From a virus (lineage: Duplodnaviria > Heunggongvirae > Uroviricota > Caudoviricetes), in the IMG/VR virus record IMGVR_UViG_3300020582_000005: 64,000 nt of DNA. One strand, given 5' to 3'. The notes below the pieces were generated by a model. It had not been told where the DNA came from, ran no database searches, and saw nothing but the letters and a program-made list of their open reading frames with translations. Both the position numbers and the translations under genes were made by a program. Below, in pieces: positions 2,939-31,595 of this stretch. Each line of letters opens with the position of its first letter. The first letter of the stretch is position 1.

Positions 2939-3682
2939 ATGGGTGTTATTGTAAAGTCTGTATTAGTTCATTCGTGTGAAAAGGAAGCTATAAGTTATCC
3001 CGAGGCGAGCCTTCAAGTAGGTAAAAAGTACGTTCTTGATGGTATCGATCCAAAAGAAATGAGTATTATTCCGTTAGACGGGACGAAGTTTTACTTCGCT
3101 TTGGACGAAAATAGGACCGTTAACGGGGTTAAAATTCGAGGAAAATGTAACTGTCGTAAGTTTGAAACGTATTCTTACTCGGAGAGTTTGTTTGCCATCG
3201 GTGGAGCTAAAGCGGTTTGGACGTTGAATTTAAAGAAGCACCGAATGGAGTTGTTTACCGAGCGAAGATATGAAACAGAAACTGTCAATGGTGAAAAACG
3301 AAGAACCGGCACAATGCAGCTTATTTTTCACGTGTGGCGACGACAGCAGCCTAGAGTGCCCCGAGTAGATTTGATTACGCAAGAGGATATAGAAAGAGCT
3401 TATATAGATGGTCGGCATTTTTATATAGATCACATTGAAAATGTACATGATTTGTATATGTTAAATCGTTTAGATTTATTCGCTCCTGAAGTGGCCCAAG
3501 ATTTGAAACGTCTTTATCATGCAGATCAGAACAAAACTAGAATTGTTCACGGCAAGGAAAGAAAACAGTTAGAAAATAAAGCCGATGAAATTAAGCGAAA
3601 AGGTTTCAAGGATGATCCAACAGAAGGTCGATTAATCTTTCCCTTTCCGAATGATGATCGGACACCTGGAGGACATAAATAA
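2939..3682 (+). CDS. hypothetical protein
   Basis: 247-aa ORF. Confidence 0.5.
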   Translation: MGVIVKSVLVHSCEKEAISYPEASLQVGKKYVLDGIDPKEMSIIPLDGTKFYFALDENRTVNGVKIRGKCNCRKFETYSYSESLFAIGGAKAVWTLNLKKHRMELFTERRYETETVNGEKRRTGTMQLIFHVWRRQQPRVPRVDLITQEDIERAYIDGRHFYIDHIENVHDLYMLNRLDLFAPEVAQDLKRLYHADQNKTRIVHGKERKQLENKADEIKRKGFKDDPTEGRLIFPFPNDDRTPGGHK

Positions 3683-4137
3683 TGGAACCGCACGAAGAAG
3701 CTTTAGGAAAATTGCAAAATGAATATGAACGTACGGAAATTCAGAATGCCATAGATAGATTTAGAGAAAAATATCACAATAAGTCTTTTTCTGGTCGGCA
3801 CCCTGAGTTAGGTCGTATGATCAATTGTCCTATATGCGACCGTCGTCATAGAACTTCTGAAATCTGTCTACAGAGATTCGCTAAAACTGAGGAAGGTGTT
3901 GAGTTAGTAGCCCGAGGGCACGGTCACGGAAAAGGTCGAATTAATCGGCACTGGAATAAACGAAGTCTTGAACTGGTTGATTTGACACGTAAACTAATTA
4001 TTTTTTATCCTAATGGTAATGAAGATGTTAAGAAAGCTCGTTCGGCTGCTATGAATGCACTTCGAAAAAAGTGGCACGCACGTAGTCAACAAATTCAGCA
4101 TCAGCAGAAGTTGTCTAGAAAAATTAATAGAGGGTAG
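3682..4137 (+). CDS. hypothetical protein (CxxC...C pair, basic)
   Basis: 151-aa ORF with NCPICDRRHRTSEIC. Confidence 0.5.
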   Translation: MEPHEEALGKLQNEYERTEIQNAIDRFREKYHNKSFSGRHPELGRMINCPICDRRHRTSEICLQRFAKTEEGVELVARGHGHGKGRINRHWNKRSLELVDLTRKLIIFYPNGNEDVKKARSAAMNALRKKWHARSQQIQHQQKLSRKINRG

Positions 4138-4138
4138 A

Positions 4139-4366
4139 ATGTCGGTCACGGATCACGAATTCGAAATAAGAGAATTACATGCCAGAGAAGAGTGTGAAAC
4201 TCTTGGCGTTATTGGGAAGACAGGGAAGCCGGATCATTGGTTTAACGCTTCTTTACGAGAATGCTTTGCTCGTGATAAGAAGTCTGGGGCTATTAATTGG
4301 CAGCAGACTCTAGAGCTTCGAAAGAAGTTAGTTGCTGGATATGAAAAGAGGAAAGAGCGTGGCTAG
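4139..4366 (+). CDS. hypothetical protein
   Basis: An internal ATG at 4139 (MSVTDHEF) avoids overlap with the previous gene. The 4055 start given by the ORF track overlaps that gene. Confidence 0.4.
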   Translation: MSVTDHEFEIRELHAREECETLGVIGKTGKPDHWFNASLRECFARDKKSGAINWQQTLELRKKLVAGYEKRKERG

Positions 4367-5138
4367 CCCATTTACAAATATCGCTATCGGTATAAAAACA
4401 TTTTTGAGAGACGAGCATTTGGAAGTGGCTGTTAAAGGTATTCTTCATAATATGCCCGGTGCTCAAATTATCGTAGCTGACGATGGAAGAATGACTCCAG
4501 CGAAATCTTTATTTTATGATAATCTTAGATATTGGGGACATTATGTTATGTATATGCCTTATGACTCTGGTTTTGGAGCTAAAAGTAATGTCATATCGCA
4601 AGCAAATGAACATCCTTATCTCCTGATAGGATCAGATGATTTTGATTTTACATATGAAGCAGCGGAAGGTGTATTGAAGTTGCAAAGTATTCTGGATAAC
4701 AATCCAGAAATAGCCGTTGCTAGTGGCCGAGTTAGAAATCGTCCTTATGAGTTTCTTCTAGAGGAAAAGGATGGAGTCATCACGGAACACCCTCTTGATG
4801 TTGATATTAATGGTCGTGGGCAGTCGTTCATAGAGTGTGACCTGACTGTCAATTATTCTCTGATTAGAAAGAAAGTTTTCAATTTTGTGCGATGGGATGA
4901 TGATGTCAAGATCGGTGGTGGTGAGCACGGGGCGTGGTTCTTAGATGTTAAGAGGGCGGGATTTAAAGTGGCCTATGTACCAGGAGTAAATATTAATGAA
5001 CAAAATCGTCCGAGTTCTCAAGAGTATCGGAAATATCGTGCTAGAGCACATTCTCCGAAGCGTCCTTGTTTTGAGCGAAGAGGTATCAAGCGTTACATCC
5101 TTGGAAATGGACAGGTAGATTACGATGCCATCAGTTAA
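4332..5138 (+). CDS. glycosyltransferase family 2-like
   Basis: The N-terminal IAIGIKTF...ADDG and GSDDFDF (DxD) follow the GT2 pattern. The start could be 4332 or 4341. Confidence 0.6.
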   Translation: MLDMKRGKSVASPFTNIAIGIKTFLRDEHLEVAVKGILHNMPGAQIIVADDGRMTPAKSLFYDNLRYWGHYVMYMPYDSGFGAKSNVISQANEHPYLLIGSDDFDFTYEAAEGVLKLQSILDNNPEIAVASGRVRNRPYEFLLEEKDGVITEHPLDVDINGRGQSFIECDLTVNYSLIRKKVFNFVRWDDDVKIGGGEHGAWFLDVKRAGFKVAYVPGVNINEQNRPSSQEYRKYRARAHSPKRPCFERRGIKRYILGNGQVDYDAIS

Positions 5139-5535
5139 ATCTTATCAGAATCGCAAGAAAGAAATTGAAAGTCTTCGACATCTTCTTCAACAGTACGAAG
5201 TGTATTTGAAAAATAAGGACATGAGAATATGCCAACTAGAGGGACAGTTAAATCACTATGCTGGTGTGTTAGCCGATAATTTAGCTTTTCAAATTCAACC
5301 GCCTTTTATTGTAAATACAAAAGAAGCGGAGTTGCTTAAGAAGGAAATTGAAGCATTGAAAGTGACGTTGCGTCTTTATCGAGAGTACATCTTGAAGACT
5401 TATCACGACGCAGATTTCATAGATTTGATGGAAATTCCTAGTTGTTTGAAACCGTTTGACGCTATTAAATACGCCGGGGAGAAAAGTTTGTGGCTTTACA
5501 ATGGAGAAAATAATGGACCTGATAATAAGTCATAA
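5125..5535 (+). CDS. hypothetical coiled-coil protein
   Basis: 136 aa with heptad-like charged repeats. Confidence 0.45.
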   Translation: MPSVKSYQNRKKEIESLRHLLQQYEVYLKNKDMRICQLEGQLNHYAGVLADNLAFQIQPPFIVNTKEAELLKKEIEALKVTLRLYREYILKTYHDADFIDLMEIPSCLKPFDAIKYAGEKSLWLYNGENNGPDNKS

Positions 5536-6496
5536 ATCGTGTCCTGACGGCTTCTGTGCTTCGTTCATAGCACATAAGCGATATCCCGAGGCTGAAATTC
5601 TCCCGTTGAATCACGGTGATCCTCTGCCTATTGAACAGGTTAGAGGGAAAGATGTCATCGTTTTAGATTTTTCTTGGAAACGTCGAGAAGATAATGAAGC
5701 TGTCGCTGCTTCAGCCAAGTCAATCTGGATTTTAGACCATCATAAAACATCTCTTCAAGCTTGCCAGGGTTTACCATATGCTACGTTTGACATGAGTCGA
5801 TCTGGTGCCGGGTTGACGTGGGATTATCTTTTCGGCAAAGATTCTCCACGAGCACAGGACGCAGCAAATTGCTCTGTTGTGGATATGTATAAATACAATA
5901 AAATTCTTGAAGAGATGAGACGCCCTTGGTACGTTAATTATATCGAGGATTACGATCTGTGGAATCATAAATTAATAAGCACTGAGGAAGTTAACGCCTT
6001 TTTGCATTCGTTAAATTTCGACTTCGCTGAGTGGGAAGAACTCGATAATATACACTGGCTTGATGCAGCAGAGCGTGGTAAGTATGTGGTTCGTAACAAT
6101 GAACGTCGAGTTAAATTAGCACTACAGCAAGCTTTTGAAGGACGGTTAGTAATTAACCCAGGAGGATTCGATCCAGAAGCTTTTTCGTGCGATTACTCGG
6201 TGAAAATAGTCAATACTCAATATACGGATGCTTCTGAAGTCGGAGCAGCATTAGTTGAATCGGGCGCAGATATCGGCTTGACTTGGTTTGAACGTGGCGA
6301 TGGAATGATTCAGTTCAGTCTTCGATCTTTAAAAGGCGGTCCTGTAGATGTTTCTAAAGTAGCTGCACTTATCGCACCTGGAGTCGGTGGTGGGCATCAG
6401 TCGGCGTCCGGAGCACCATTACCAATTTATCAGGGGCGAGCATTGATCGACTCTATTTTGAATCGAAAGTGTGGATTGGGAGTAAAGTTTCAGTGA
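5501..6496 (+). CDS. DHH/DHHA1-family phosphoesterase (NrnA/RecJ-like)
   Basis: Contains DGD...ILDHHKT (DHH motif) and GVGGGHQSASGA (GGGH motif). Start is placed at MEKIMDL, though 5513 is also possible. The ORF-track start at 5456 overlaps the upstream gene. Confidence 0.75.
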   Translation: MEKIMDLIISHKSCPDGFCASFIAHKRYPEAEILPLNHGDPLPIEQVRGKDVIVLDFSWKRREDNEAVAASAKSIWILDHHKTSLQACQGLPYATFDMSRSGAGLTWDYLFGKDSPRAQDAANCSVVDMYKYNKILEEMRRPWYVNYIEDYDLWNHKLISTEEVNAFLHSLNFDFAEWEELDNIHWLDAAERGKYVVRNNERRVKLALQQAFEGRLVINPGGFDPEAFSCDYSVKIVNTQYTDASEVGAALVESGADIGLTWFERGDGMIQFSLRSLKGGPVDVSKVAALIAPGVGGGHQSASGAPLPIYQGRALIDSILNRKCGLGVKFQ

Positions 6497-7173
6497 GAAC
6501 GTTGATAGCAGTAAAGTCGTGTCACGATGATCTAGATAAGGGTTGTCACGATACTATTAAACAAACTTGGGGTAAAAATGTTCAATGTGATTTACGTTTC
6601 TTCGTGGGTCAGAAAGTTGGAACACCTTGGAGATGGGGCGGTCTTTTAGATACTATTTATTTAGACGTGAAAGACGATTATAATAGTTTGCCTCAAAAAA
6701 CAAAACGAATCCTTCAGTGGTCTTTTGGGAGGGATTACGATTTTATATTTCTTTGCGATGTAGACACATTCTTGATCCCGTATAAATTATTTCAAACTGA
6801 TTTTCAGAAATTTGATTATTCGGGACGATTTGGTTCTTCGCCCAAGATAGGGTCTACTTTTCACTTTAAGGATGGAAGAGGAATTCATCACTTTCATTGC
6901 CACCCGTGGGCGTCAGGGGGATTTGGGTATGCGCTGTCCCGTAAAGCAGCTGAAATAGTTATTCGTACAGAATCTGGAATGTGGGCCGAGGACATGATGG
7001 TCGGCAATTGTCTTGGCCCTGAGATTCAGTCTGGTAATGTGACGGCGAGTGATTTAATGAGATTCGAGAATGAAGCAAGCTGGCATTATCCGGCGCATAA
7101 ACTTGGGTGGACTCGGGAACGAATGAAACTGTGGATGTGTGAAATGTATAAGGAGCATTTCTTTGATAGTTAG
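6469..7173 (+). CDS. Fringe-like (GT31-like DxD) glycosyltransferase, paralog 1
   Basis: Shares D..KIKQTWGK, YDFIFLCDVDTF.IP, FDYSGR, GGFGYALSRKAAE and WHY motifs with the ORFs at 12646, 13308 and 15678. Confidence 0.55.
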   Translation: MWIGSKVSVRTLIAVKSCHDDLDKGCHDTIKQTWGKNVQCDLRFFVGQKVGTPWRWGGLLDTIYLDVKDDYNSLPQKTKRILQWSFGRDYDFIFLCDVDTFLIPYKLFQTDFQKFDYSGRFGSSPKIGSTFHFKDGRGIHHFHCHPWASGGFGYALSRKAAEIVIRTESGMWAEDMMVGNCLGPEIQSGNVTASDLMRFENEASWHYPAHKLGWTRERMKLWMCEMYKEHFFDS

Positions 7174-7918
7174 ATTAACTGGTGGCTTAGGAAATCAGTT
7201 GTTCATGTACGCATTCGGAAGATCAGTTGCAGCGATAGCTAATGAACCTTTGAAGTTTCATTGGTGTCGTTCAACGTGGGATTATGCTCTTGAACCCTTT
7301 CATCTTCCAATAATACTAGGTTCTCCTGATGGAGCGGAGCTTACATATGAAGAGTCAGGATTCTTTTACGATTCAAAAATAGCTAGTGGAATAAGGGTAT
7401 CTTCCAGACCTCGTCCATGTGAAAGAATTTATTTTCGTGGTTATTGGCAGAGCGAAAAATATTTCAATGTAGATTTGATTAGAAAAGATTTCGATTGGTG
7501 GGTTAACTCTCCGCTGAGAGTACAGTTTAGAAACAAAGCCTTCATTCACGTCCGTCGTGGTGATTATCTAAATCGAGGTACTAAGGAATTCCATGGATCG
7601 CTTCCATTGGAATATTATCAAGCGGCAGTTGCCTATATTAAAGAGCGTGTTCCTGATATAACTTTTGAAGTCTTTACAGATGATCCCGACATGAAAGAGT
7701 TCATGGGTTATCCTGTAGTTTCAACTGGAAATCAGCATCTAGATTTACACACGATGACTAAGTATTCTCATGCAATCTTGGCTAACTCTACATTTTCGTG
7801 GTTCGGGGCATGGTTAGGCGAGCATTCAAGTCAAATTGTTATAGCTCCAAAGAAATGGTTTCAAGATGAAACAATTAATACTTCTGATTTAGTACCTGAT
7901 CGCTGGATAAGGATTTAA
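7139..7918 (+). CDS. GT11 alpha-1,2-fucosyltransferase-like
   Basis: N-terminal IVRLTGGLGNQLFMYAF and the signature FIHVRRGDYL of GT11 FutC/WbsJ-type enzymes. Confidence 0.8.
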   Translation: MKCIRSISLIVRLTGGLGNQLFMYAFGRSVAAIANEPLKFHWCRSTWDYALEPFHLPIILGSPDGAELTYEESGFFYDSKIASGIRVSSRPRPCERIYFRGYWQSEKYFNVDLIRKDFDWWVNSPLRVQFRNKAFIHVRRGDYLNRGTKEFHGSLPLEYYQAAVAYIKERVPDITFEVFTDDPDMKEFMGYPVVSTGNQHLDLHTMTKYSHAILANSTFSWFGAWLGEHSSQIVIAPKKWFQDETINTSDLVPDRWIRI

Positions 7919-7921
7919 ATT

Positions 7922-8374
7922 ATGTCGTCTCAAACTTATAGAGAAACACACCGAGAAATCAATAAAATTAAACAAAGGGAGTGGAGAGCGGCTAATCGAG
8001 AGCACCATCGTGCATATTCACGAAAATACAGTAAAGAACATCCTGAACGACGTAAAGCACAATAAAAGAAGTTACCAGCTAGATACGCTCGTTTGAAGGC
8101 TCACGCTAAAAGTTATGAATTGATTTGTTCAATTTCTTTTGAGCAATACAAATCATTAATAGAGAATCCCTGTTATTATTGCGGAGAAAAATTAGCACTA
8201 TTGCAAACCGGCAGTGGATTAGATCGTATTAATTCTTCCGAAGGTTATACACTTGAAAATCTTCGTGCCTGTTGTATGATATGTAATCAAGCTAAAAATG
8301 TACGTTCAGAAAATGAATTTAGAGAATGGGTAAATAAAATTTACCACTATTGGATTAGCAAGGTGTCTTTATGA
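7922..8374 (+). pseudogene. HNH endonuclease interrupted by an in-frame TAA (N-part 7922-8065, HNH part 8066-8374)
   Basis: ATG at 7922 encodes MSSQTYRETHREINKIKQREWRAANREHHRAYSRKYSKEHPERRKAQ. A TAA follows at 8063-8065, and the same frame continues KKLPARYARLKAHAKSYEL...CYYCGEKLAL...LDRINSSEGYTLENLRACCMICNQAKN (HNH). The downstream part has no in-frame ATG before the HNH motif. Confidence 0.55.
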
Positions 8375-9333
8375 AACGAGCTTTAATTACCGGGGTTTCC
8401 GGACAAACAGGATCGTATTTAGCGGAGTCGCTTCTCGAAAAGGGATATGAAGTTCATGGAATTATACGTCGATCTAGTTCATTAAATACGGGTCGCATAG
8501 ACCATATTTTTAATGATCTACATCTTCATTATGGAGATTTGACCGACGCCAATTCTATTCGTCATATTGTTCAGGAGTCGAAACCAGACGAAGTGTATAA
8601 TCTTGGCGCACAATCACATGTTAAAGTTTCATTTGAGTTGCCGGTTTATACTGCCGAAGCTACCGGTCTAGGTGCTTTGAATATGTTAGAAGCTACTACT
8701 CAATATGGTCACGCTAAATTTTATCAAGCCTCATCAAGTGAGTTATTCGGAAAAGTTGTCGAAACTCCTCAGAAAGAAACTACTCCGTTCTGGCCACGTA
8801 GTCCTTACGGCATCGCAAAACAATTCGCATATTGGAGTACGGTGAACTATCGTGAAGCTTATAATATGTTTGCTTGTAATGGGATTCTTTTTAATCATGA
8901 GTCGCCTCGTAGAGGTGATACGTTTGTCACACAGAAAATAGTCAAAGCAGCTGTTCGGATCACTCAAGGTAAGCAGGACAAACTTTTCCTAGGTAATCTG
9001 GATGCCCGAAGGGATTGGGGCTACGCCAAGGATTATGTTGAGGCTATGTGGCTTATGCTTCAACAAGATAAACCAGATGATTACGTGATCGCCACGGGCG
9101 AAACCCACTCCATAAAAGAGTTCTTGACAGAAGCCTTCAGCTATGTTAATCTAGACTGGACTAAGTATGTAGAGATCGATTCTAAGTATTATCGCCCCGC
9201 TGAAGTGGATTTGTTATTGGGAGACGCTTCAAAGGCTAGACGACAGTTAGGTTGGGAGCCACGAGTGAAGTTTAAAGAGTTGGTTAAAATTATGATGGAA
9301 GCGGAGTTAAATGCTCGATCTTTTAATTCGTGA
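8371..9333 (+). CDS. gmd: GDP-mannose 4,6-dehydratase
   Basis: Near end-to-end similarity to bacterial Gmd: [74 protein letters not shown]. Confidence 0.95.
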
Positions 9334-10309
9334 CGCCGAAGAAACTTTAAACATAGTTGACTACAGTCCACTAGATGGTGCTCGTGTCTTTATTTCTGGG
9401 GCCACAGGTTTGATCGGTATGCACTTGATGACAATTTTGTACGTTCTTAAACAGCGAGGGTATAAGATAGAAGCTTTTGGACAGTATCATAACGAGCCTG
9501 CGTGGTATACTAACCAACTTGCAAAACGGGCTGGATTTAATCTCTATCACGATTCAATGCGATTTGTATCAGCCGATATTATTATTCATGCGGCTGGATA
9601 CGGTCAACCTGTCATTTTTATGCAAAATCCAGCAGATACAATCCATGTAAATACAACTATCACGGAACGATTATTAAAATCTCTCGCTCCTGGCGGTCGC
9701 TTCCTTTTTGTAAGTTCGAATGAAGTTTATCATGGTTTACAGAAAGAATTCGCTACGGAAGAAGATATCGGGAGCACTACTCCTTACCATCCACGGGCAG
9801 GTTATGTCGAAGGAAAACGAAGCGGTGAAGCCATAACTTATGCCTATCGTAAAAATGGAGTAAATGCCTCTTCTGCCCGGTTAAATTTGACTTATGGCCC
9901 AGGCGTTCGTAAGGATGATAAACGTGCTTTGAGCCAATTTATTGATCAGGCGATCACGAAGAATCATATTGAGATGAAGTTTTCAGGCAAGGAAATGAGA
10001 ACTTGTTGTTACGCCAAAGATGTCGCAACGATGCTCTGGAAGGTTGTTCTGCACGGCACTAAACCCGTCTATAACGTTGGTGAGCGCTCTACCACTAGTA
10101 TTGCTGAATTAGCTACGATTGTTGCCCGATTAACTAATTCAACTATTCACATTCCGGAAGAGGATAAAGAATTACCCGGTTCCCACGCCTTACCTAGAAT
10201 GGATATCGGTTTAATGGAAGCGGATATGGGAAAGATGAACTATACCACTTTGGAAGAAGGTCTGAAGAGAACAATTGAGTGGCAACGGAGATTATATGGA
10301 TCATTTTAA
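9311..10309 (+). CDS. NAD(P)-dependent extended-SDR epimerase/reductase (Fcl/ColC/Rmd-like)
   Basis: [15 protein letters not shown] (Rossmann fold) and a Y-x-x-x-K motif (YVEGK). It sits directly after gmd. The exact activity cannot be told from sequence alone. Confidence 0.6.
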
Positions 10310-10838
10310 GATTGAAGAGGAAAAGTTTAATGGACGTGTCAAGTTGATTCGTTCCACTTGCTTTGAAGATGAGCGTGGATATTTCAACATCACTTATCTC
10401 GATAATGAAATGCAAGAAATGGGACTTCCACGATTTGTTCGTGATCTTCACTCTCGGTCAATGAAAAATGTTATACGAGGTTTACACTTTCAATTTACGC
10501 CCCCAATGGCAAAATTAATGCGGGTCACTCAAGGAAGAATTTTTATGGTAGCAGTCGATGTTCACAAACAGTCCGCTACATTTTTACAGTACTATAGTCT
10601 TATTATGCAGAAGGGAGACAAACTTTTACTTTGGGGTGATTCTTATATCGCTCGTGGATTTTGTGCTTTACAGGAATCTGAAGTACAGTACAAATGTTCT
10701 AGTCATTTCGACAAAGCATCTGATGACGCAATTCTATGGAACGATCCTATGATAGGTATCGATTGGCCAGTTAAAGACCCCACTTTATCAGATAGGGATA
10801 GGCACGCCATGACTGCGAAGGAGTTTTTCCATCTATGA
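10275..10838 (+). CDS. RmlC-like cupin sugar-nucleotide 3,5-epimerase
   Basis: FEDERGYF, GLHFQ, VTQGRIFMVAVDV and WNDPMIGIDWP resemble dTDP-4-dehydrorhamnose 3,5-epimerase family enzymes. Confidence 0.7.
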   Translation: MSGNGDYMDHFKIEEEKFNGRVKLIRSTCFEDERGYFNITYLDNEMQEMGLPRFVRDLHSRSMKNVIRGLHFQFTPPMAKLMRVTQGRIFMVAVDVHKQSATFLQYYSLIMQKGDKLLLWGDSYIARGFCALQESEVQYKCSSHFDKASDDAILWNDPMIGIDWPVKDPTLSDRDRHAMTAKEFFHL

Positions 10839-11992
10839 GATCGATAACTTTAGGACATTTGAATATCAGTGAAAACGGAAAACGTTATGTTAATAATGCG
10901 TTGAATGCTAATCGTTTAAGTCGTGGTAAATTTACCGAGTCGTTTGAATTTTCTTTCGCTGAACTACATCAAGTAAAACATGCGTTATTTTGTAATAGCG
11001 GTACATCTGCGCTACAAATCGCTTTGGCGGCATTGAAAGAAGTTTACGGATATAAAGATGGGGACGAAGTCATTGTTCCAGCAACTACGTTTATCGCTAC
11101 GTCTAATATCGTCCTACAAAATAATCTTAAACCCGTGTTCGTTGATGTCAGTCCTGAAACTTATAATATCAATCCATTCAAAATTTCAAAAGCTATTACT
11201 GATAGAACACGTTGTATCATTCCTGTTCATTTGTTTGGCTTGCCAGCGGATATGCACAACATAATGATTACTGCGAAGGGTTACGGATTGCAGGTACTTG
11301 AAGATTCGTGTGAAACTATGTTTGCTACACAAAATGGTAAGTCAGTTGGAAGTTTTGGAGATTTAGCTTGTTTCTCAACTTATGTTGCTCATTTAATTGT
11401 CGGTGGAGTTGGTGGTATTGTCACTACATCGAATTCTAAATTATACGACATATGTCGCAGTTTGATGAATCATGGTCGTAGTACAGATTATATTTCAATA
11501 GATGATGATGATAACCTCCCGACGGACATTATGGATCGACGTTACGAATTTGAAAGAGTAGGCTATTCTTATAGAGCCACAGAGCTAGAAGCCGCCCTCG
11601 CTTTAGCAGAATTAGAACAACGTGAAAACAACATTATAGCACGGCGACGAAATGCCCACGAATTGACTACACTGTTGAAGGATGTTAATTGGTTGCAGTT
11701 ACCGAAAATTCCCGAAAAGATGACGCATAGTTTTATGATGTATCCTATAGTCGTTAAACCTTTTACAAAGAAACGAAATGATTTTCTTATTTATTTAGAA
11801 CGAAACGGAATTGAGACGAGATATATGTTTCCTCTGTTGAGTCAACCGATTTATCAGAAATTATTTCCACGAGAAGAGTCTAAACACTATAACGCTGTGG
11901 GATTAGCAGAACGGGGCTTTTTTATAGGAATTCACCAAGGTCTAAATGGTGATGACATGCAGTATATCGCTAAAGTGATCAAGGATTATTAA
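10835..11992 (+). CDS. DegT/DnrJ/EryC1-family PLP enzyme with His in place of the Schiff-base Lys (ColD/E1-like putative sugar 3-dehydratase)
   Basis: Aminotransferase class-V-like fold. The segment CFSTYVAHLIVGGVGG aligns by eye to the SF-x4-K-x4-GEGG motif (ArnB FSFHAIKNITCAEGG), with H at the Lys position. Confidence 0.7.
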   Translation: MRSITLGHLNISENGKRYVNNALNANRLSRGKFTESFEFSFAELHQVKHALFCNSGTSALQIALAALKEVYGYKDGDEVIVPATTFIATSNIVLQNNLKPVFVDVSPETYNINPFKISKAITDRTRCIIPVHLFGLPADMHNIMITAKGYGLQVLEDSCETMFATQNGKSVGSFGDLACFSTYVAHLIVGGVGGIVTTSNSKLYDICRSLMNHGRSTDYISIDDDDNLPTDIMDRRYEFERVGYSYRATELEAALALAELEQRENNIIARRRNAHELTTLLKDVNWLQLPKIPEKMTHSFMMYPIVVKPFTKKRNDFLIYLERNGIETRYMFPLLSQPIYQKLFPREESKHYNAVGLAERGFFIGIHQGLNGDDMQYIAKVIKDY

Positions 11993-11998
11993 AGCAAA

Positions 11999-12649
11999 AT
12001 GACGATTCAAGAAATAAGACGTGATGTAATCATTAGTATTTTAAAGGATGTAAAGTTTCCGGTTATCGTGGAAGCCGGAGCCTGTCACGGTGAAGATAGC
12101 CAAATGTTAACTTATGCAGCTACTTATCCCGAGAATATTATCCACGTAATGATCGAACCCGATCCCGAGAACTGTGAAGTTATTCGACGAACCGCACTAG
12201 ACATTCCAGGCAGACGCTTGATTGAAGGCGCAGTAGCCAAATATTCTGGTTTTAGAAAGTTTAATCGTGCAATTGAAATAAAAACTGGTTATCGATTTTG
12301 TGGATCGTTATTAGAACCACGGAAAGATGCATTTCGGCAGATGAACTTCGATGAGGTGATTGAAGTTCAATGCTACACTCTCGATGAGATTTTTCAGCAA
12401 CAGGGCTTAACTCACGTCGATTTACTGTGGGCCGACGTTCAAGGCGGGGAAAGAGGAATGCTTGAAGGCGGCGAAGCGGCCCTTTCTAAAACTCGTTACT
12501 TGTTTATGGAAGTCGTTAAAGAAGAACAATATGTAGGAGAAGCTCTTAAAGAAGAATTAGTTTCCTTATTAGAACAAAGAGGCTGGTCAATCGTAATCGA
12601 TTTCGACACTATTGGCGATGTTCTGATGAAAAATGAGAGGTATCAATGA
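11999..12649 (+). CDS. FkbM-family methyltransferase
   Basis: IVEAGACHGEDS is a glycine-rich SAM motif. The protein is the size of FkbM-domain proteins and lies in the sugar locus. Confidence 0.5.
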   Translation: MTIQEIRRDVIISILKDVKFPVIVEAGACHGEDSQMLTYAATYPENIIHVMIEPDPENCEVIRRTALDIPGRRLIEGAVAKYSGFRKFNRAIEIKTGYRFCGSLLEPRKDAFRQMNFDEVIEVQCYTLDEIFQQQGLTHVDLLWADVQGGERGMLEGGEAALSKTRYLFMEVVKEEQYVGEALKEELVSLLEQRGWSIVIDFDTIGDVLMKNERYQ

Positions 12650-13350
12650 GAGTTTTAATAGCGATTATTTCTTTTCAGGGAGACGCTGAAAACGGGAATC
12701 ACGATAAGATTCGGCAAACTTGGGGGAAAGACGTTGCTATAACCGGTGCCGATCTACGCTTTTTCCTTGGGCGACGTGATAAGTTTTATAAGCCAAAAGC
12801 TGATGAAACATCGATTCCTTGGCAAGAGGACGGAACTAGGAAGTGTCAGCACCCTTATTGGACAGCCGTAGCAGGCTGCTGCGTCGAATACTGGCAAGTC
12901 CTTTATAGAGGAATTCTTGATTGGTCGCTACGTAACGGATACGATTACACGTTTCTCGCTGAAAATGACACTTTCTTGATACCACGGAAGTTGATGAAAA
13001 GTGGTTTTGAAAACTACGATTTTTCTGGCTGGATGATGTATACCCACTCAGATAAGCCTGATCAATATTACGTTGAACCCGGTGCTGGATATTTTCTTTC
13101 ACGACGAGCCTCTGAAGCTATTCTGAAAACAACTCCGGATCATTTGCATTTTGAAAATCTTGCTTGCGACGTTTTAAAGCCGATGCAGGAACGTGGGGAA
13201 ATGACAATTAAGTCTCTAGATCATTTTTGGAACGAGACTTCGTGGCACTATAGAGCGCAAGGAATTATAGACCCGGTGATTAGAGACGGCTATCCGGTAG
13301 GCTCTCGTTGGATGTTCGATATGTATCGGCAGCACGGAGCAGATCAATGA
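12646..13350 (+). CDS. Fringe-like glycosyltransferase, paralog 2
   Basis: HDKIRQTWGK, YDYTFLAENDTFLIP, YDFSGW, AGYFLSRRASE, WHY. Confidence 0.55.
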   Translation: MRVLIAIISFQGDAENGNHDKIRQTWGKDVAITGADLRFFLGRRDKFYKPKADETSIPWQEDGTRKCQHPYWTAVAGCCVEYWQVLYRGILDWSLRNGYDYTFLAENDTFLIPRKLMKSGFENYDFSGWMMYTHSDKPDQYYVEPGAGYFLSRRASEAILKTTPDHLHFENLACDVLKPMQERGEMTIKSLDHFWNETSWHYRAQGIIDPVIRDGYPVGSRWMFDMYRQHGADQ

Positions 13351-14048
13351 GAATTCTAGTGGCTGTTTATTCTCATTCCGGAGATTCCGTCAATGGAAAC
13401 CATCAAAAAATTCGAAATACCTGGGGTAAACATGTAGCGCCTTGGGATGTTCGCTTTATGATTGGGCACCGAGACGCCCCAGGCTGGCATATCCAGAACG
13501 ATGAAGTGCTTTTACCTGAACGAGCCAATCGTGCTTGCGGAAATGACTGGTTACTTTGGAATCTTTATTATCAAGAATTAACTATTGAGATGCTTCGGTG
13601 GTCTTTAGAACAAGGTTACGATTTCACGTTTCTTTGCTGCAATGACACGTTCATTATCCCTAGTAAACTGAAAGCGACAGACTTCGAAAAATATGATTAC
13701 TCGGGGATTTTTTATCCTCTTAGTCAGTTAGGAGAAACTTTTTACGAGCCTTTCTATAAGCGGCAGGCTTATGTAGCAGCGGACGCAGGCACGGGCTGGT
13801 TTATGAGTCGTAAAGCATCGGAAATAGTTCTTAACAGTACTCAGGGTGAGTATTTCGGCACTAGTGATCAATATACAGGACAAGTTTTGGGACCGTATAT
13901 TAAGTCTGGAACAATTACTGCAAAGAATCTAGATAATTTTCATCACGTAGCCGCTTGGCATTACCGGGAAGAAGAGAATGCTTTATCAACTGGATATTCT
14001 ATCGGTTCCACTTGGATGCATCAAATGTATCAGAAATACGGGGGATAG
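13308..14048 (+). CDS. Fringe-like glycosyltransferase, paralog 3
   Basis: HQKIRNTWGK, YDFTFLCCNDTFIIP, YDYSG, GWFMSRKASE, WHY. Confidence 0.55.
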   Translation: MDVRYVSAARSRSMRILVAVYSHSGDSVNGNHQKIRNTWGKHVAPWDVRFMIGHRDAPGWHIQNDEVLLPERANRACGNDWLLWNLYYQELTIEMLRWSLEQGYDFTFLCCNDTFIIPSKLKATDFEKYDYSGIFYPLSQLGETFYEPFYKRQAYVAADAGTGWFMSRKASEIVLNSTQGEYFGTSDQYTGQVLGPYIKSGTITAKNLDNFHHVAAWHYREEENALSTGYSIGSTWMHQMYQKYGG

Positions 14049-14909
14049 ATGGAAAATAAAACTTACAAACCTGTCATCTACGCTAACCACGAGTTGAATG
14101 TTCCTGAATTGAATTGGAGAGCATCGATTTCGGTAGACTACTTCAATTTTGAAGATCGAACGCCGTACAAAATATTTTGGCAGTTAGAGCCTGAAGACAT
14201 CACTCCAACGGAAAAGAAACTCATCAAGAATCACCAATTCTACGATCTCATTTTGACTTACAATAATACTGTACTAAGTGAATGCTCTAATGCTGTTTTC
14301 TTTTTGAACAATGGAGTTTGGACCCACGAAAGTGATGTATCACAGAAAAAATTTGCCGTTTCCTTTTTGACCAGTGCAAAGACGATGTGTCCTGGGCATA
14401 AATTCCGTGTCATGACTTTTAAGAAATTACAACAGTATTTAGAGGGAAGTAATTCTGCCCTACCTTGTCCTTTAACGATGCACATGTCCCCTCCTTATCT
14501 ACCCGACAAGCGGAGTATGCTAATACCATTTCAATATGCAATTTCAATTCAAAATTCTCAGATGCATAACTACTTCTCGGAAATTCTTTTAGATTGTTTT
14601 GCTACTAAGACGATTCCTATTTTCTGGGGAAGCGCCAATGTCGGAGAATTTTTTAATCCAGACGGCATTTTGTCTTTTGGTAATCCTTACGATCCTAGAG
14701 CTAGGACAACCTTGAATGATGTTTTGTTGTCCTTGACACCTGATTTTTATCATTCACCTAAGGTCCAGGCAGCGATAGAAGAAAATTATCTGAAGTCTCT
14801 TACATACTCAGATAGGATAGGCCGTTTGGTTAACGCTATCACAGATTCGTGGACTCCGAAGATAACTAAAATTCATAGTGGAGAACCAAATGTCGCTCCC
14901 AACAGTTAG
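14049..14909 (+). CDS. GT10 alpha-1,3/4-fucosyltransferase-like
   Basis: The C-terminal block YQYAISIQNSQMHNYFSEILLDCFATKTIPIFWGSANVGEFFNP matches the GT10 motif (Y.F.L.FENS...YVTEK......IP.YWGS....FNP). Confidence 0.7.
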   Translation: MENKTYKPVIYANHELNVPELNWRASISVDYFNFEDRTPYKIFWQLEPEDITPTEKKLIKNHQFYDLILTYNNTVLSECSNAVFFLNNGVWTHESDVSQKKFAVSFLTSAKTMCPGHKFRVMTFKKLQQYLEGSNSALPCPLTMHMSPPYLPDKRSMLIPFQYAISIQNSQMHNYFSEILLDCFATKTIPIFWGSANVGEFFNPDGILSFGNPYDPRARTTLNDVLLSLTPDFYHSPKVQAAIEENYLKSLTYSDRIGRLVNAITDSWTPKITKIHSGEPNVAPNS

Positions 14910-15681
14910 CCTAGTTTGTCCAACATATAATCGTCAACAATTTCTTCCTGTGGCTATACGTAGTTTTTTACAGCAGACATATCGACCTCTTGAACTGATT
15001 TTTGTTGATGATAGTGGTGATTTATCATGGACTCAAAATTTAGATATTCCATTTGTTTATGTCCGTCTGAGTAAACGTACACCGACAGGCACAAAAAGAA
15101 ACATGGGTGCCGATTTAGCCACAGGTGATATAATCGCTAATTGGGATGATGACGACTGGAGTATGGCTCATAGAATTCAAACTCAAGTCATGCACTTAGA
15201 AAATTCTCAGAAAGCCGTCACAGGATACAACGTGACAATATGTTATGATGAAAAGACACGGGGTTTTTATAGGAATCAAGGCGGTCCTCCTTATTTCGCA
15301 TCCGGAACGTCCCAGATGTACTGGAAAAGTTGGTGGCGTGAGCACCCGTATCCAGATGTAACTTTTGGCGAGGATAGCGTTTTCTCTAGAACAGCACGGC
15401 TTAAGGATCAATTAGCTATTTTTAGTCCAGGGAAAATGCTTGTCGCTAGAAAGCATCAAGCTAACACCGATAAAGTACCGCTTAAGTGGCTTAAAAACGT
15501 AGATTCGAGGGAAATTCATACCGACTTTTTCCGGGCGCTGGAAAGTCCGTCGTTTTCAGATACTTACTTGAAAGAAAAACACGTTTGTTATCAAGAGTGT
15601 CACGAGGAACTTGAACGAGATTTCGCTGGACAAATGATAGACTATCGTGTAAACTGGACTCCGGAGATTAAAACCCGATGA
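14878..15681 (+). CDS. glycosyltransferase family 2
   Basis: LSLVCPTYNRQQFLPVAIRSFLQQTY...LIFVDDSGD and a later DDDD motif. Confidence 0.8.
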   Translation: MENQMSLPTVSLVCPTYNRQQFLPVAIRSFLQQTYRPLELIFVDDSGDLSWTQNLDIPFVYVRLSKRTPTGTKRNMGADLATGDIIANWDDDDWSMAHRIQTQVMHLENSQKAVTGYNVTICYDEKTRGFYRNQGGPPYFASGTSQMYWKSWWREHPYPDVTFGEDSVFSRTARLKDQLAIFSPGKMLVARKHQANTDKVPLKWLKNVDSREIHTDFFRALESPSFSDTYLKEKHVCYQECHEELERDFAGQMIDYRVNWTPEIKTR

Positions 15682-16337
15682 AGATATTGGCTGCTGTTGA
15701 GTCTTGTCAGGCAAATCGACATTTGCATCAAGCTATGCTCGATACGTGGCTTGGTACTTTATCCACTATGGATATAGACTGTCGTTTCTTTATCGGCGGT
15801 TTGAGTGAGCCTGAAAATCACCTTGAGGTATGGGTTCCTTGTTTAGATACATATGATAATCTAGCCGTTAAAACGAGAGGAATTTGTAGATGGGCTGCTA
15901 CCAATAATTATGATTTTCTTTTCAAGTGTGATACTGATACCGTTGTTAATCCGAAGCGTCTTTTAGAAAGTGGATTCGAACAATATGATTATATGGGCGC
16001 TGAAAATTGTGATAATCTTCCGCCTAGTTTAAATGCGGCTTTTCCTGAATGCGTCGGAGGAAAAATTTCGTTTGCGAGTGGCGGTGCAGGCTATTGGTTA
16101 AGTCGAGATGCTATGTCCTACGTAGCGAATGGACCACTCGCATCATTTCCAGAAGATGTATATGTTTCTGGGGTATTAGGCGATAACTACATTTATCCGG
16201 TATGGCACAAGGGGTACCGCTGGCGACCAGGATCGAAGATTAAAGGCGCAACAACTTTCCATTTATCTAGTGCATTGCAGGTGAAATACCGCCCTGAGTT
16301 GATGTACGAATATTATAAGAAAATACTTGACAAATAA
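15678..16337 (+). CDS. Fringe-like glycosyltransferase, paralog 4
   Basis: YDFLFKCDTDTVVNP, YDYMG and GGAGYWLSRDA are shared with the other three paralogs. Confidence 0.55.
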   Translation: MKILAAVESCQANRHLHQAMLDTWLGTLSTMDIDCRFFIGGLSEPENHLEVWVPCLDTYDNLAVKTRGICRWAATNNYDFLFKCDTDTVVNPKRLLESGFEQYDYMGAENCDNLPPSLNAAFPECVGGKISFASGGAGYWLSRDAMSYVANGPLASFPEDVYVSGVLGDNYIYPVWHKGYRWRPGSKIKGATTFHLSSALQVKYRPELMYEYYKKILDK

Positions 16338-26425: not shown

Positions 26426-26552
26426 ACGATCTTATCAAACGCAATTCTGAACTAGAACAAGAGAATATTCAACTAAAGAAACGTGCCGAAAAAGCAGAAC
26501 AAACACTACTAGAAATTCAAGCAGCGTGGAAAACTATCACCAGAATTATGAG

Positions 26553-27518
26553 ATGCTATTCATGAGTTTACCTGGGGCTACAGACGTTGGTGTAGTGATC
26601 GGTCGATTTCAAGTGCCGAATCTTCACGAAGGTCATCGGAGTCTACTCGATTTAGTCGCAACTAGACATAAACGGGTTTTAATTCTACTAGGATCGCCTG
26701 CGTGGAAGGGTGGTAAGAGTGATCCTCTTGACTACCATACTCGGGCATTGATGTTTCATCAAGAGTATCCAGACTTTCTAGTTGCACCAGTGACAGATAC
26801 GCAATCAAATGATCAGTGGTCAGAGCAAGTAGATAAAATTATCCAGAGTGTATTTTCACTTTGTCAAGTGACACTTTATGGAGCACGAGACAGTTTCATC
26901 GATCAATATAATGGGCGATACAAAACAAGCGAAATTATACAGTCTGTTGAATCTTCTGGCACAACTGTTCGAGAATATACAGCAGCCATGCCTCAGGAAA
27001 AAGAAAGTTTCCGTGCCGGTGCAATCTATGGAATTCTAAACAATCCAAGTCTGATAGTGCCATGCGTTGACGGCGCTGTCTTAAGAAAGAGCGAGGATGA
27101 AATTCGAGTTGTATTGATCAGGAAACCAGATGAAAAACTTCTCAAATTTCCTGGTGGGAAAGTGGAATACGATGACAAATCCTACGAATCCGCCGTCAAT
27201 CGAGAAGTCCGAGAAGAAACCGGACTTGAAGTCGGAACCCCGATCTACGTCACGTCCAGTTGTAGTCTGCCTGATTGGAGAGCTATCGGCGCTGGAATTG
27301 CTGTACATACTTCTCTCTTTGCGCTCCGATTTATATATGGCGCTCCCAAAGGTCGAGACGACGCAGCTGAAGCCGGATGGTTCAACCTCTTTGAAATAAA
27401 AGAGGCGCAGATGGAAGATTGCCATAAAAAGTTGTTGACAACTTTGAAAGCTTGGGTTAGTATAAATTCAGGAGACTTCTTCAATGACGAATTTACTGCT
27501 GCAGACCGACTCATATAA
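26553..27518 (+). CDS. nadM: bifunctional NMN adenylyltransferase / Nudix hydrolase (NadM-Nudix type)
   Basis: The N-terminus VGVVIGRFQVPNLHEGH carries the (H/T)xGH nucleotidyltransferase motif. The C-terminal Nudix box is GGKVEYDDKSYESAVNREVREETGLE. The start is uncertain (26526, 26553 or 26562). Confidence 0.8.
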   Translation: MLFMSLPGATDVGVVIGRFQVPNLHEGHRSLLDLVATRHKRVLILLGSPAWKGGKSDPLDYHTRALMFHQEYPDFLVAPVTDTQSNDQWSEQVDKIIQSVFSLCQVTLYGARDSFIDQYNGRYKTSEIIQSVESSGTTVREYTAAMPQEKESFRAGAIYGILNNPSLIVPCVDGAVLRKSEDEIRVVLIRKPDEKLLKFPGGKVEYDDKSYESAVNREVREETGLEVGTPIYVTSSCSLPDWRAIGAGIAVHTSLFALRFIYGAPKGRDDAAEAGWFNLFEIKEAQMEDCHKKLLTTLKAWVSINSGDFFNDEFTAADRLI

Positions 27519-30557: not shown

Positions 30558-31490
30558 ATGAAGCTAAGCGAACAGTCTGAAAGGTTCATCCGTCAAATCG
30601 CTAACCGGAAGCGTGCTCCTGCCCGTTTAGCTACGCTCAAGACCTTCCAAAACCGGTTAAATAGCGTTATCCTGCCTCGACTTGGCGAGATGGACCTTAA
30701 AGACATTGAAAATGGCGTCGTACGGCGGTTTATAGCTGACATTTCTCAGGAATTAGCTCCAAGCACCGTGACAGCTACTTTGTCACTCTTAAAGGCTGTA
30801 ATAGCCTCTGCTGTGGATGAAAATGGCAATCGGACATATAACCGGACCTGGAATGCTGACTTTATAGACGCCCCTTTGATAGTCCAGAAAGACCTAAATG
30901 CCCCTGTAATAGGCCGGGAATCGCTTTCAGAGGCGATTTCCAAGGCTCAGGGAGTAGATAAGCCTCTATATGCCATCCTAGCCGGAACGGGGCTTAGAAT
31001 CGGAGAGTGCCTAGCTCTGGGAACCGGACAGGGAACCGGTCTAAACATCTGGAATCCGGCTAAGGCTACTTTAAGCATTCGAAGCACTGTTTTACAGAAC
31101 GGAGAGATTCAACCGATGCCTAAAACAGAAGCAGGCATTAGAGAGGTTGATATTCATCCAGAATTGAACAAATTTCTCACTGGCACTCTCTTAAGAGAGG
31201 GCGAGAAAAGGGGTTTGTTATTCCAAAACAGTAATAAACCCCTTGTTTATTCTACAGTACTTCGCCGGATGCATAAACTAGGAATCGAAGAGGCATTTCA
31301 TGCCTTTCGCCGCTTTCGTGTGACACATCTTGAAGCCAATAACGTGCCGCATACTTTGATTCAATTTTGGGTTGGACATGCCGCCGGAGATATTACGGAT
31401 CAATACACTAGGATTGGTTCCGATATTCAAACTCGAAAAGAATGGTGCGAAAAGGTTGGTTTAGGGTTCAAAATTCCTGATGTGGGATAG
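30558..31490 (+). CDS. int: tyrosine integrase/recombinase
   Basis: The catalytic residues are in order: R (GLRIGE), HAFRRFRVTHL (H-x-x-R), VGH, and the Tyr in DQYTRIG. Confidence 0.8.
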   Translation: MKLSEQSERFIRQIANRKRAPARLATLKTFQNRLNSVILPRLGEMDLKDIENGVVRRFIADISQELAPSTVTATLSLLKAVIASAVDENGNRTYNRTWNADFIDAPLIVQKDLNAPVIGRESLSEAISKAQGVDKPLYAILAGTGLRIGECLALGTGQGTGLNIWNPAKATLSIRSTVLQNGEIQPMPKTEAGIREVDIHPELNKFLTGTLLREGEKRGLLFQNSNKPLVYSTVLRRMHKLGIEEAFHAFRRFRVTHLEANNVPHTLIQFWVGHAAGDITDQYTRIGSDIQTRKEWCEKVGLGFKIPDVG

Positions 31491-31595
31491 CACAGATTAC
31501 ATGATTTTAGGTATATTTAGTTTACTGTTAATTGCAATCGGCTCCATATGTTATGCTGTAATTTGTTTAATTCTAGACAAATAAAAAGAGGAGAT

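Follow-up and report, generated by a model that had tools for sequence, protein, structure and literature searches.

Ancient GT31-like glycosyltransferase paralogs occupy conserved slots in the glycan-synthesis island of an uncultured phage lineage

Glycosylation encoded by phages has been documented biochemically in few cases, namely DNA glucosylation, O-antigen conversion and the glycans of mycobacteriophage virions. Viral gene sets in which nucleotide-sugar synthesis is combined with several glycosyltransferases are already known from mycobacteriophages, from chloroviruses and giant viruses and, for example, from the cyanophage S-SCSM1, which carries Gmd, a guanosine diphosphate (GDP)-fucose synthase, an alpha-1,2-fucosyltransferase, NodZ and five transferases (PMC9602691). 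Domains of GT31 or Fringe type have been described in viruses too: a structure search of BFVD finds Fringe-like domains annotated in Pithovirus, Cedratvirus and one uncultured myovirus, the viral matches being at most 20% identical. The DNA considered here, IMG/VR record IMGVR_UViG_3300020582_000005 of a tailed phage (Caudoviricetes), was analysed as a stretch of 64,000 nucleotides, hereafter the window, which represents 64 kb of a ~112-kb genome. On its + strand lies a 12-kb island of co-oriented genes (4332-16337) that holds four paralogous GT31-like genes, F1 to F4. The island has GDP-fucose genes and fucosyltransferases in common with S-SCSM1, and is set apart from other viral glycan islands by four GT31-like genes standing in fixed slots, in an uncultured lineage. 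What goes beyond routine annotation is an apparently phage-restricted GT31-like family with three conserved slots, a non-canonical subfamily tied to an aminotransferase gene, and the O-antigen-like mosaicism of a locus that is present lineage-wide.

The four genes, with positions in the numbering of the whole window, are the following:
6493-7173, + strand: F1, GT31-like glycosyltransferase of GT-A type, canonical, 226 aa
12646-13350, + strand: F2, GT31-like paralog, non-canonical, 234 aa
13347-14048, + strand: F3, second non-canonical GT31-like paralog, 233 aa
15678-16337, + strand: F4, GT31-like paralog, canonical but most divergent, 219 aa

All four open reading frames (ORFs) lie on the + strand and end where an earlier reading of the letters of the window (the sequence-only reading) had placed them, but two of its starts, which were those of the maximal ORFs, have been replaced: F1 is better begun at the GTG at 6493 than at 6469, and F3 at the ATG at 13347 than at 13308, because these starts agree with the N-termini of homologs (M-K/R-x-L-I-A-V), with overlaps of 4 bp with the upstream stops and with the gene calls of public contigs. 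The ATG of F3 overlaps the stop of F2 (ATGA). F1 and F4 are identical to the public proteins P0001 and P0013, respectively. That the four form a paralogous family, as the sequence-only reading had claimed, is borne out by pairwise BLASTP, in which all pairs are significantly similar, from 4e-14 to 5e-50 (F1-F2 5e-31, F1-F3 9e-42, F1-F4 5e-22, F2-F3 5e-50, F2-F4 4e-14, F3-F4 2e-15), so that the absence of similarity that would have spoken against a family did not occur. Identities range from 26 to 38% over 186-248 aligned positions, the best mutual match inside the window being that of the adjacent genes F2 and F3 (38%), and essentially no similarity among the four is left at the DNA level. F1-F4 are thus true paralogs.

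The four proteins belong to CAZy family GT31 and have the GT-A fold, an assignment based on the Pfam Galactosyl_T model (PF01762) for F1 and F4, on the comparison of a family profile with the PDB, and on Foldseek searches with structural models of F1 and F2. At a Galactosyl_T cut-off of 23 bits, F1 (29.8) and F4 (26.0) score above the threshold, F3 (11.7) remains below it and F2 gives no match. A profile of 87 family members, F2 and F3 included, matches B3GalT5 (1.5e-7), Drosophila C1GalT1 (9e-7), B3GalT6 (1.9e-4) and B3GNT2 (3e-4) in the PDB, with the DxD, GG-x-GY-x-LSR and ED motifs in register between the profile and the solved GT31 enzymes; a profile of the four sequences gives the same outcome more weakly. 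At the sequence level it is only by the larger profile that F2 and F3 are tied to GT31. Searched against the PDB with Foldseek, the AlphaFold model of F1 (predicted local distance difference test score, pLDDT, 96) finds B3GNT2 at 5.6e-11 with a template modelling (TM) score of 0.68 and B3GalT6 with a TM score of 0.71, further C1GalT1 and CHSY3/CHPF, and then mouse Manic Fringe (2j0a) at rank 21 (5e-7), the top matches of the model being GT31 structures throughout. The first 35 matches of the F2 model (pLDDT 90.8) are all GT31 structures (E from 8e-8, TM 0.49-0.60); the best is a chain of the CHSY3-CHPF1 complex, Manic Fringe 2j0a stands at rank 2 (2e-7), and B3GNT2, B3GalT5 and C1GalT1 are also found. 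PHROGs, NCBIfam and PADLOC give no match for F1-F4.

The name "Fringe-like", under which the sequence-only reading had placed the four genes, is appropriate at the level of CAZy family and fold, at which Fringe (Manic, Lunatic and Radical) is likewise a member of GT31 and Manic Fringe a significant structural match of F1 and F2, but not in the strict sense. The Pfam Fringe model (PF02434) is matched by F4 alone, with 11.8 bits against a cut-off of 21 (E 0.16), neither the four-sequence nor the 87-member profile matches any Fringe chain in the PDB at E up to 1, and the closest relatives are beta-1,3-Gal/GlcNAc transferases and C1GalT1. Moreover, Fringe acts on the O-fucose of epidermal growth factor (EGF) repeats in the secretory pathway, and nothing in the phage sequences points to an EGF-type acceptor. 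With the GT31 enzymes that are their best structural and profile matches (human B3GNT2, B3GalT5 and B3GalT6, Drosophila C1GalT1) the phage proteins share the GT-A fold, at 11-23% identity to solved enzymes, and F1 and F4 share in addition the Y-x-x-L-x-x-K-T loop, DxD, GG-x-GY-x-LS(R), xED and the C-terminal His. They differ from these Golgi-resident enzymes in being cytoplasmic and minimal (~220-235 aa), soluble and free of signal anchor, stem and disulfide-rich insertions; F2 and F3 differ further in lacking the donor loop and in having an altered DxD, G-loop and xED. F1-F4 are soluble enzymes, and probably metal-dependent and inverting ones.

The functional landmarks of such enzymes are known from the structure of B3GNT2, where DxD coordinates the metal through its last Asp and touches the donor sugar through its first residue, for which Glu is accepted as well as Asp, the glycine-rich loop faces the donor, the Asp of xED is the catalytic base, the C-terminal His (C-His) is the second metal ligand, and T216, F217, L220 and K223 hold the uracil ring (PMC7948508). 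The corresponding positions in the window, all on the + strand, are:
F1: TWGK 6565-6576; uracil-cradle-type loop DDYNSLPQKT 6673-6702; DxD as C-DVD-TF 6754-6771; G-loop SGGFGY 6913-6930; xED as AED 6985-6996; C-His in WHY 7081-7089
F2: insert in place of the uracil-cradle motif 12841-12882 (residues 66-79), Cys/His-rich, KCQHPYWTAVAGCC; DxD as E-N-D 12958-12975; G-loop EPGAGY 13075-13092; xED position as H-F-E 13147-13158; WHY 13243-13251
F3: DxD as C-N-D 13635-13652; G-loop DAGTGW 13782-13799; xED position as T-S-D 13860-13871; WHY 13956-13964
F4: loop DTYDNLAVKT 15846-15875; DxD as C-DTD-TV 15927-15944; G-loop SGGAGY 16077-16094; xED as P-E-D 16149-16160

The motif string which the sequence-only reading had listed for all four is present but less uniform than it was written. 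F4 departs from it most, with TWLG for TWGK, DYMG for DYSG and FHL or WHKGY for WHY, and the proposed G(G/W)xGY consists of two forms, the canonical S-G-G-x-G-Y of F1 and F4 and the EPGAGY of F2 or DAGTGW of F3. Across the 87 aligned family members the last Asp of DxD is invariant, and the His of WHY, conserved in at least 90% of the family, is by its position alone the putative metal ligand C-His. In the F1 clade (n=50), the F4 clade (n=13) and two basal clades, C-D-x-D-T-F, S-G-G-x-G-Y and A-E-D are conserved at essentially 100%, and the D-x-Y-x-x-L-x-x-K-T loop is kept, with the aromatic/Leu/Lys spacing of F217, L220 and K223 in B3GNT2. In the F2/F3 superclade (n=43), by contrast, the last Asp of DxD (100%) and the His of WHY are retained, while E, S or C stands at the first DxD position, the G-loop starts with E-P-G or D-A-G, and the uracil loop is replaced by an insert which in most members carries a conserved R-x-C-x-H-P-x-W...G-C-C; F3 of the window is without the Cys/His insert of F2. 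The Cys/His pattern of this insert might serve to bind metal or to form a cluster of disulfides. The base position is variable in the wider superclade (Gly in 12, Asp in 12 and Glu in 2 of 26), and it is Glu in the tight F2 clade, inside which the altered motifs are invariant.

The loss of DxD, G-loop, xED and C-His by which a pseudoenzyme would be recognised is not found in F2 and F3 of the window. Their changes are confined to the G-loop, the donor loop and, in F3, the first DxD position, and in each of them a metal site and a base are still plausible. Elsewhere in the family the first Asp of DxD is often absent, in domains with C-F-T-D-T-Y in which the G-loop and xED stay, so its loss alone is no sign of inactivity. 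Together, the missing uracil cradle and the altered motifs suggest that F2 and F3 use a nucleotide-sugar donor other than that of F1 and F4.

A database search with the profile of the four proteins returned 315 relatives, almost all from metagenome assemblies, and no informative name occurs among the 120 of them that were listed. The relatives of F1 are 40-73% identical to it, those of F2 68-89%, with a looser group at 41-52%, and those of F4 67-80%; the orthologs of F3 in loci L004 and L005 (related loci are designated here by L numbers) are 80-86% identical. In a neighbour-joining tree each of F1-F4 falls in a clade of its own, with support, from 100 bootstrap replicates, of 90% for the F2/F3 superclade and of 100% for F3 with its L004 ortholog, for the tight F2 clade and for the F4 clade. 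F2 and F3 belong to different subclades and are not sister genes, by which a recent tandem duplication as the origin of this pair was rejected. Synonymous sites are saturated between the window and the related loci, whereas nonsynonymous divergence (dN) is 0.07-0.27 and its ratio to synonymous divergence (dN/dS) at most 0.13 (0.06 for F3 against its L004/L005 ortholog); F2 is still 87% identical to its L002/L004 ortholog despite the saturated dS, and is the best-conserved island protein in the comparison with L002. All four genes are under purifying selection.

These results do not agree with the sequence-only reading on one point, a fourfold duplication and divergence within one phage genome. 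Such an origin could appeal to the adjacency of F2 and F3 and their best mutual match, and to other lineages in which the same slot was expanded independently, for example with three non-canonical copies in L062. The phylogeny with homologs, however, places each copy in a separate supported clade with orthologs from related uncultured phages, and F1-F4 are closer to the genes of other phages (F1 up to 73%, F2 89%, F3 80-86%, F4 80%) than to one another; with clade support of 90-100%, the split between F2 and F3 and the loss of essentially all DNA similarity, we give next to no credence to duplication inside this phage. F1-F4 are ancient paralogs, a set which the phage inherited and recombination reshuffled rather than one that arose in this genome.

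An exhaustive HMMER search of 1.84 billion cluster representatives gave 368 clusters at E<=1e-30, 1,882 at E<=1e-10 and 4,409 at E<=1e-3. At least 18 of the top 146 representatives are two-domain fusions of the family, which is independent evidence that paralogs of this GT31-like family act together. P0240 (2123 aa), P0121, P0127, P0129 and other representatives show such multidomain forms: fusions of two domains, several of which pair a D-x-D domain with an F-T-D domain, and one protein with six degenerate GT31-like domains. Against 50,697 GenBank phage records, tblastn of each of F1-F4 and megablast of the island found no match. Among 185,579 species genomes of GTDB, one pattern recovered only two contigs of a metagenome-assembled genome (MAG) labelled "uncultured archaeon" and another pattern found nothing; as these scans were pattern-based, absence from cellular genomes is no proof. 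The two contigs, L058 and L059 (CABMCB010000059.1 and CABMCB010000010.1, "uncultured archaeon isolate LFW-28"), are 58-100 kb long with a GC content of 51-54% and are syntenic with the window phage over the nuclease block, DHH, F1, GT11, Gmd and lysozyme; they are most likely phage contigs mis-binned into an archaeal MAG. The family thus looks phage-restricted and has so far been seen in uncultured phages only.

Besides F1-F4, the island holds the following genes, annotated from Pfam and NCBIfam matches and from PDB sequence matches:
4332-5138, + strand: GT-A-like protein (weak PDB sequence match to B4GALNT1, 7e-4)
5125-5535, + strand: small ORF
5456-6496, + strand: DHH/DHHA1-like phosphoesterase (below Pfam cut-offs)
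7139-7918, + strand: GT11 alpha-1,2-fucosyltransferase-like protein
8093-8374, + strand: HNH-like insert (CYYCGEKL...CCMICNQAKN), with a 174-nt gap upstream
8371-9333, + strand: GDP-mannose 4,6-dehydratase (Gmd), passing the NCBIfam equivalog cut-off
9311-10309, + strand: epimerase/reductase of the SDR (short-chain dehydrogenase/reductase) type
10275-10838, + strand: RmlC-like 3,5-epimerase
10835-11992, + strand: DegT aminotransferase
11999-12649, + strand: FkbM methyltransferase
14049-14909, + strand: GT10 alpha-1,3-fucosyltransferase-like protein (H. pylori alpha-1,3-fucosyltransferase in the PDB, 5e-7)
14878-15681, + strand: GT2 glycosyltransferase

Most junctions between island genes are overlaps of 4-35 bp. 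A scan for promoters and terminators gave no enrichment and does not define an operon. No island protein contains a hydrophobic segment of transmembrane grade, and no flippase, polymerase, transporter or initiating phosphoglycosyl transferase is found in the island.

Contigs of 45-186 kb from numerous samples have the gene order of the island, synteny being kept in L001-L008, L016 and L060-L063, and the paralogs stand in three slots. In slot 1 an F1-type gene directly precedes GT11, within a core unit GT-A-(DHH)-F1-GT11 that has a fixed place after the conserved nuclease block. In slot 2 a non-canonical, F2-type gene directly follows DegT, with at most one gene between them (the methyltransferase in the window), an arrangement that holds in the window, L002/4/5, L006, L008, L016, L060, L061, L062 and L063. 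Slot 3 is that of the F4-type gene, the last of the island, after GT2. The middle slot has one copy in most lineages, two in the window phage and the L002 group and three in L062, and a 20-kb locus has from 1 to 5 copies of the family in all; in the loci examined the non-canonical type never occurs without canonical copies. Adjacency to DegT is the sole link of the F2-type gene that holds in all lineages. A strict link with the RmlC-like epimerase was considered and rejected, as L008 and L016 have an F2-type gene without RmlC and L019 has RmlC without an F2-type gene.

Individual modules have different histories. Compared with L002/L004, the epimerase, RmlC, F2, F3 and the GT10-like protein are 74-87% identical, GT11, GT2 and F4 are only at 37-50%, and another GT31-like gene stands in place of F1; compared with L006, GT11 (90%), DegT (85%), F4 (80%) and F1 (68%) are the similar ones and the epimerase, RmlC and F2 are at 45-49%. 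The island is a mosaic, with swapping of modules as in O-antigen and capsule loci. The F3 ortholog is split by a frameshift into ORFs of 156 and 82 aa in L002, L003, L032, L038, L039 and L040 (~10684-11414 in L002 coordinates), that is, in contigs of four metagenomes, and is intact (237 aa) in two others (L004 10684-11412 and L005 3603-4331). This is a real population polymorphism or a pseudogenisation of the second paralog of the middle slot.

How the island would work can be outlined from the families of its enzymes. GDP-mannose would be converted by them to GDP-6-deoxyhexoses, Gmd with the reductase and the RmlC-like epimerase giving a fucose-type sugar, and Gmd with DegT, with or without the FkbM methyltransferase, giving a 4-amino-4,6-dideoxy sugar, possibly methylated. 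Eight cytoplasmic transferases may then assemble one oligosaccharide residue by residue. F1 probably adds a beta-linked hexose or N-acetylhexosamine from a uridine diphosphate (UDP)-sugar of the host, which would become the acceptor of the adjacent GT11 fucosyltransferase, and F4, beside GT2, may carry out a step of the same kind; the residues added by the two would also be substrates of fucosyltransferase-like enzymes nearby. Since F2 and F3 have no uracil cradle and this type of gene always stands behind the aminotransferase gene, what they transfer is most likely the deoxy-amino sugar that the island itself makes, linked to GDP and not to UDP. The stepwise assembly proposed in the sequence-only reading is in this respect reasonable, because the paralogous transferases share one co-oriented and tightly packed glycan island, and the most likely function of the island is the stepwise assembly of one glycan containing fucose and an amino-deoxy sugar; the donor sugars, the order of action and the participation of all four in one glycan are what we infer. 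As a joint statement, that ancient GT31-like paralogs in conserved slots build one oligosaccharide stepwise, with F2 and F3 working on a GDP-sugar donor, we consider probable. The acceptor is slightly more likely to be a virion protein than a lipid-linked glycan of the host: the lean towards a cytoplasmic acceptor comes from the absence of any membrane or export component, from the fixed, lineage-wide position of the island and from the phage-restricted family. Glycosylation of mycobacteriophage virions is a precedent, as far as it is presented in PMC12619734 (citing Freeman et al., 2023). The capsid and other structural proteins have no obvious glycosylation tail in their C-termini or Ser/Thr content, a result that is uninformative on the acceptor.

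Several observations weigh against this joint interpretation. In about half of the members of the wider F2/F3 superclade the base position is occupied by Gly, in keeping with a protein that is inactive or works by another mechanism. One sub-lineage (four metagenomes) carries F3 with a frameshift and hence can do without it. The link between DegT and the F2-type gene is one-directional, DegT and RmlC being found in islands without an F2-type gene (L009-L011 and L019), and the argument from co-inheritance is based on few independent lineages. Donor, linkage and acceptor, moreover, are deduced from similarity at the family level, with 11-23% identity to solved enzymes, and the part of the ~112-kb genome seen is 64 kb, so that genes revealing the acceptor may lie outside the window.

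Among the alternative explanations, the most serious is that the island remodels a glycan of the host envelope (lipopolysaccharide O-antigen, capsule or exopolysaccharide, S-layer glycan), the paralogs acting on undecaprenyl-linked sugars with superinfection exclusion or serotype conversion as the result. Lysogenic conversion is conceivable given the integrase at 30558-31490; O-antigen pathways commonly employ soluble or peripheral transferases, which can act on lipid-linked intermediates, and the families of Gmd, DegT, RmlC, GT11, GT10 and GT2 also make bacterial O-antigens. A comparable gene set of a cyanophage was indeed interpreted as serving cell-wall modification (PMC9602691). Yet the island is without an initiating phosphoglycosyl transferase, flippase, polymerase, transporter or membrane segment, and it is fixed lineage-wide between conserved phage genes rather than being a sporadic moron by the attachment site; nor would one expect, of genes borrowed from the O-antigen loci of hosts, a family that is found in no cellular genome bar the two mis-binned phage contigs. 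Envelope remodelling therefore remains a serious rival, although a doubtful one. Far less can be said for the idea that the four transferases glycosylate the hypermodified bases of phage DNA, as in T4-like phages, in order to evade restriction. In its favour, all island proteins are cytoplasmic, and phage transferases, several per genome, build glycans on DNA according to the mention of Pyle et al. (2024) in PMC12619734. No hydroxymethylase, thymidylate-synthase-like or base-modification gene is found in the 64-kb window with Pfam and PHROGs or in the annotation of L001, however, PADLOC gives no match, and the island makes GDP-6-deoxy and amino sugars and has two fucosyltransferase-like genes. 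We know of no DNA-modification system with GDP-6-deoxy/amino-sugar and fucosyltransferase-like genes, and DNA as the target is in our judgement very unlikely.

A further alternative concerns F2 and F3 themselves, which might be catalytically dead pseudo-glycosyltransferases serving F1 and F4 as partners, chaperones or scaffolds. Cosmc plays such a pseudoenzyme-partner role for C1GalT1 and is derived from GT31. Likewise CHPF, the partner of CHSY in chondroitin synthase, has GT31 domains without motifs and is likely inactive (PMC13389171). As in these pairs, canonical and motif-degenerate GT31 paralogs co-occur in the phage island and could pair; the non-canonical genes were never met without canonical copies in the loci examined, and Foldseek places a chain from the CHSY3-CHPF1 complex first among the matches of the F2 model, CHPF being the likely inactive member of that complex (PMC13389171). 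The F2/F3 superclade has, moreover, lost the first Asp of DxD, the S-G-G G-loop, A-E-D and the Y-x-x-L-x-x-K-T loop, with Gly at the base position in about half of its wider membership, and F3 can be dispensed with in one sub-lineage. On the other hand, as judged from their sequences, F2 and F3 differ from Cosmc and CHPF in keeping the metal-binding Asp, the C-His and an acidic base residue: F2 has E-x-D, an allowed form of DxD (PMC7948508), with Glu at the base position and C-His, F3 keeps the base Asp and C-His, and the metal-binding Asp is 100% conserved in their clade. Many family domains without the first Asp (C-F-T-D-T-Y) keep the G-loop and xED; the altered motifs do not vary within the tight F2 clade, and no protein of the island is better conserved than F2, a pattern typical of an active site and not of a relaxed one; and the constant place after DegT points to a link with the donor. 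Dead partners are for these reasons improbable, and transfer of a GDP-linked sugar by F2 and F3 is the reading that we retain.

Outside the island, the window contains the following genes:
26526-28920, + strand: NUDIX protein and nicotinamide phosphoribosyltransferase (NAMPT), a pair for salvage of nicotinamide adenine dinucleotide (NAD)
30558-31490, + strand: tyrosine integrase
31548-32483, + strand: SPFH/Band 7 protein
53268-54293, - strand: major head protein
55982-58246, - strand: portal
58134-60266, - strand: large terminase

From the integrase and the NUDIX/NAMPT pair, the phage may be temperate and may restore NAD in infection. The nearest isolate is Tunturiibacter phage Tunturi_3, a podovirus of Acidobacteriota with 97.6 kb of DNA (PMC11924767), whose terminase shares only 25% identity with that of the window phage, and the related lineage consists of uncultured phages of ~100-115 kb.

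Some further features of the island and its relatives may be mentioned. The DHH-like gene is conserved directly upstream of the F1-type gene in many related loci, and one guess is that its product could remove the nucleoside diphosphate products of the transferases. The HNH-like ORF at 8093-8374, for which no Pfam match was found at E up to 0.01, separates GT11 from Gmd in the window, whereas the two genes abut directly in L002; at the same junction in L061 there is a 201-aa gene (1212-1817) with a faint match to NUMOD3, and a recurrent insertion site of homing endonucleases is suspected (window 8093-8374, L061 1212-1817, L060 1371-1592). In L060 (2511-3699), L061 (2744-4323) and L062 (2454-3593) a split transketolase/E1-like pair (E1_dh and Transket_pyr) stands between Gmd and the epimerase; this pair, which is not in the window, suggests a two-carbon branched or extended sugar in related islands. 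The islands of L062 (10627-12861) and L063 (9922-12193) end with a GHMP kinase, a SIS (GmhA-like) isomerase and an epimerase, a set resembling the heptose-nucleotide pathway and adding to the variability of the locus. In L002 a gene of GT6, the family of the blood-group A/B transferases, lies at 3450-4157, just upstream of GT31-like and GT11 genes. GT6, GT31, GT11 and GT10-like enzymes are the families that make ABH and Lewis-type glycans in animals. Beside the island of L002, a 186-kb relative, a protein of more than 824 aa with an Ice_binding domain (PF11999) is encoded at 1-2292 on the - strand, and may be a tail fibre or adhesin.

The same combination of enzyme families is known from the bacterial O-antigen, Lewis and blood-group-mimicry loci (H. 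pylori FutA/FutC, E. coli O86/O127-type), with which the phage island shares a beta-1,3-transferase, GT11, GT10, GDP-fucose synthesis, GT6 (in the sister lineage L002) and mosaic module swapping. It differs from bacterial O-antigen loci in having no Wzx/Wzy, ABC transporter, initiating transferase or membrane proteins, and in that its presumed beta-1,3 step is GT31-like and phage-restricted. The analogy of the island's product with blood-group-type glycans comes from the family names alone. A far-reaching possibility, which we regard as unlikely, would be that both of two things hold: that the F2/F3 type is a phage-restricted offshoot of GT31 which, with a new, partly Cys/His-rich insert in place of the uracil-binding loop, has given up UDP-sugars for the GDP-linked 4-amino-6-deoxy or methylated sugar made by the island, and that the island writes a fucosylated, Lewis- or blood-group-like, strain-variable glycan on the virions of widespread soil and freshwater phages. 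If this were true, it would be the phage counterpart of the self-glycosylation of chloroviruses, and the particle would vary antigenically through an exchange of modules like that of O-antigen loci.

The finding amounts to a solid and well-supported but fairly ordinary annotation, which holds little surprise. In a lineage of uncultured phages of ~100-115 kb, a large glycan locus that varies among strains has been maintained, with eight soluble transferases, four of them GT31-like, of a family not seen, in the scans made, in cultured phages nor, mis-binned phage contigs aside, in cellular genomes. The F2/F3 subfamily offers a natural experiment in the change of nucleotide-sugar donor by GT-A enzymes. 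Were the glycan carried by the virion, host range, particle stability or evasion of immunity and defence might depend on it, and the swapping of modules would be a readable record of selection on the surface of the particle.

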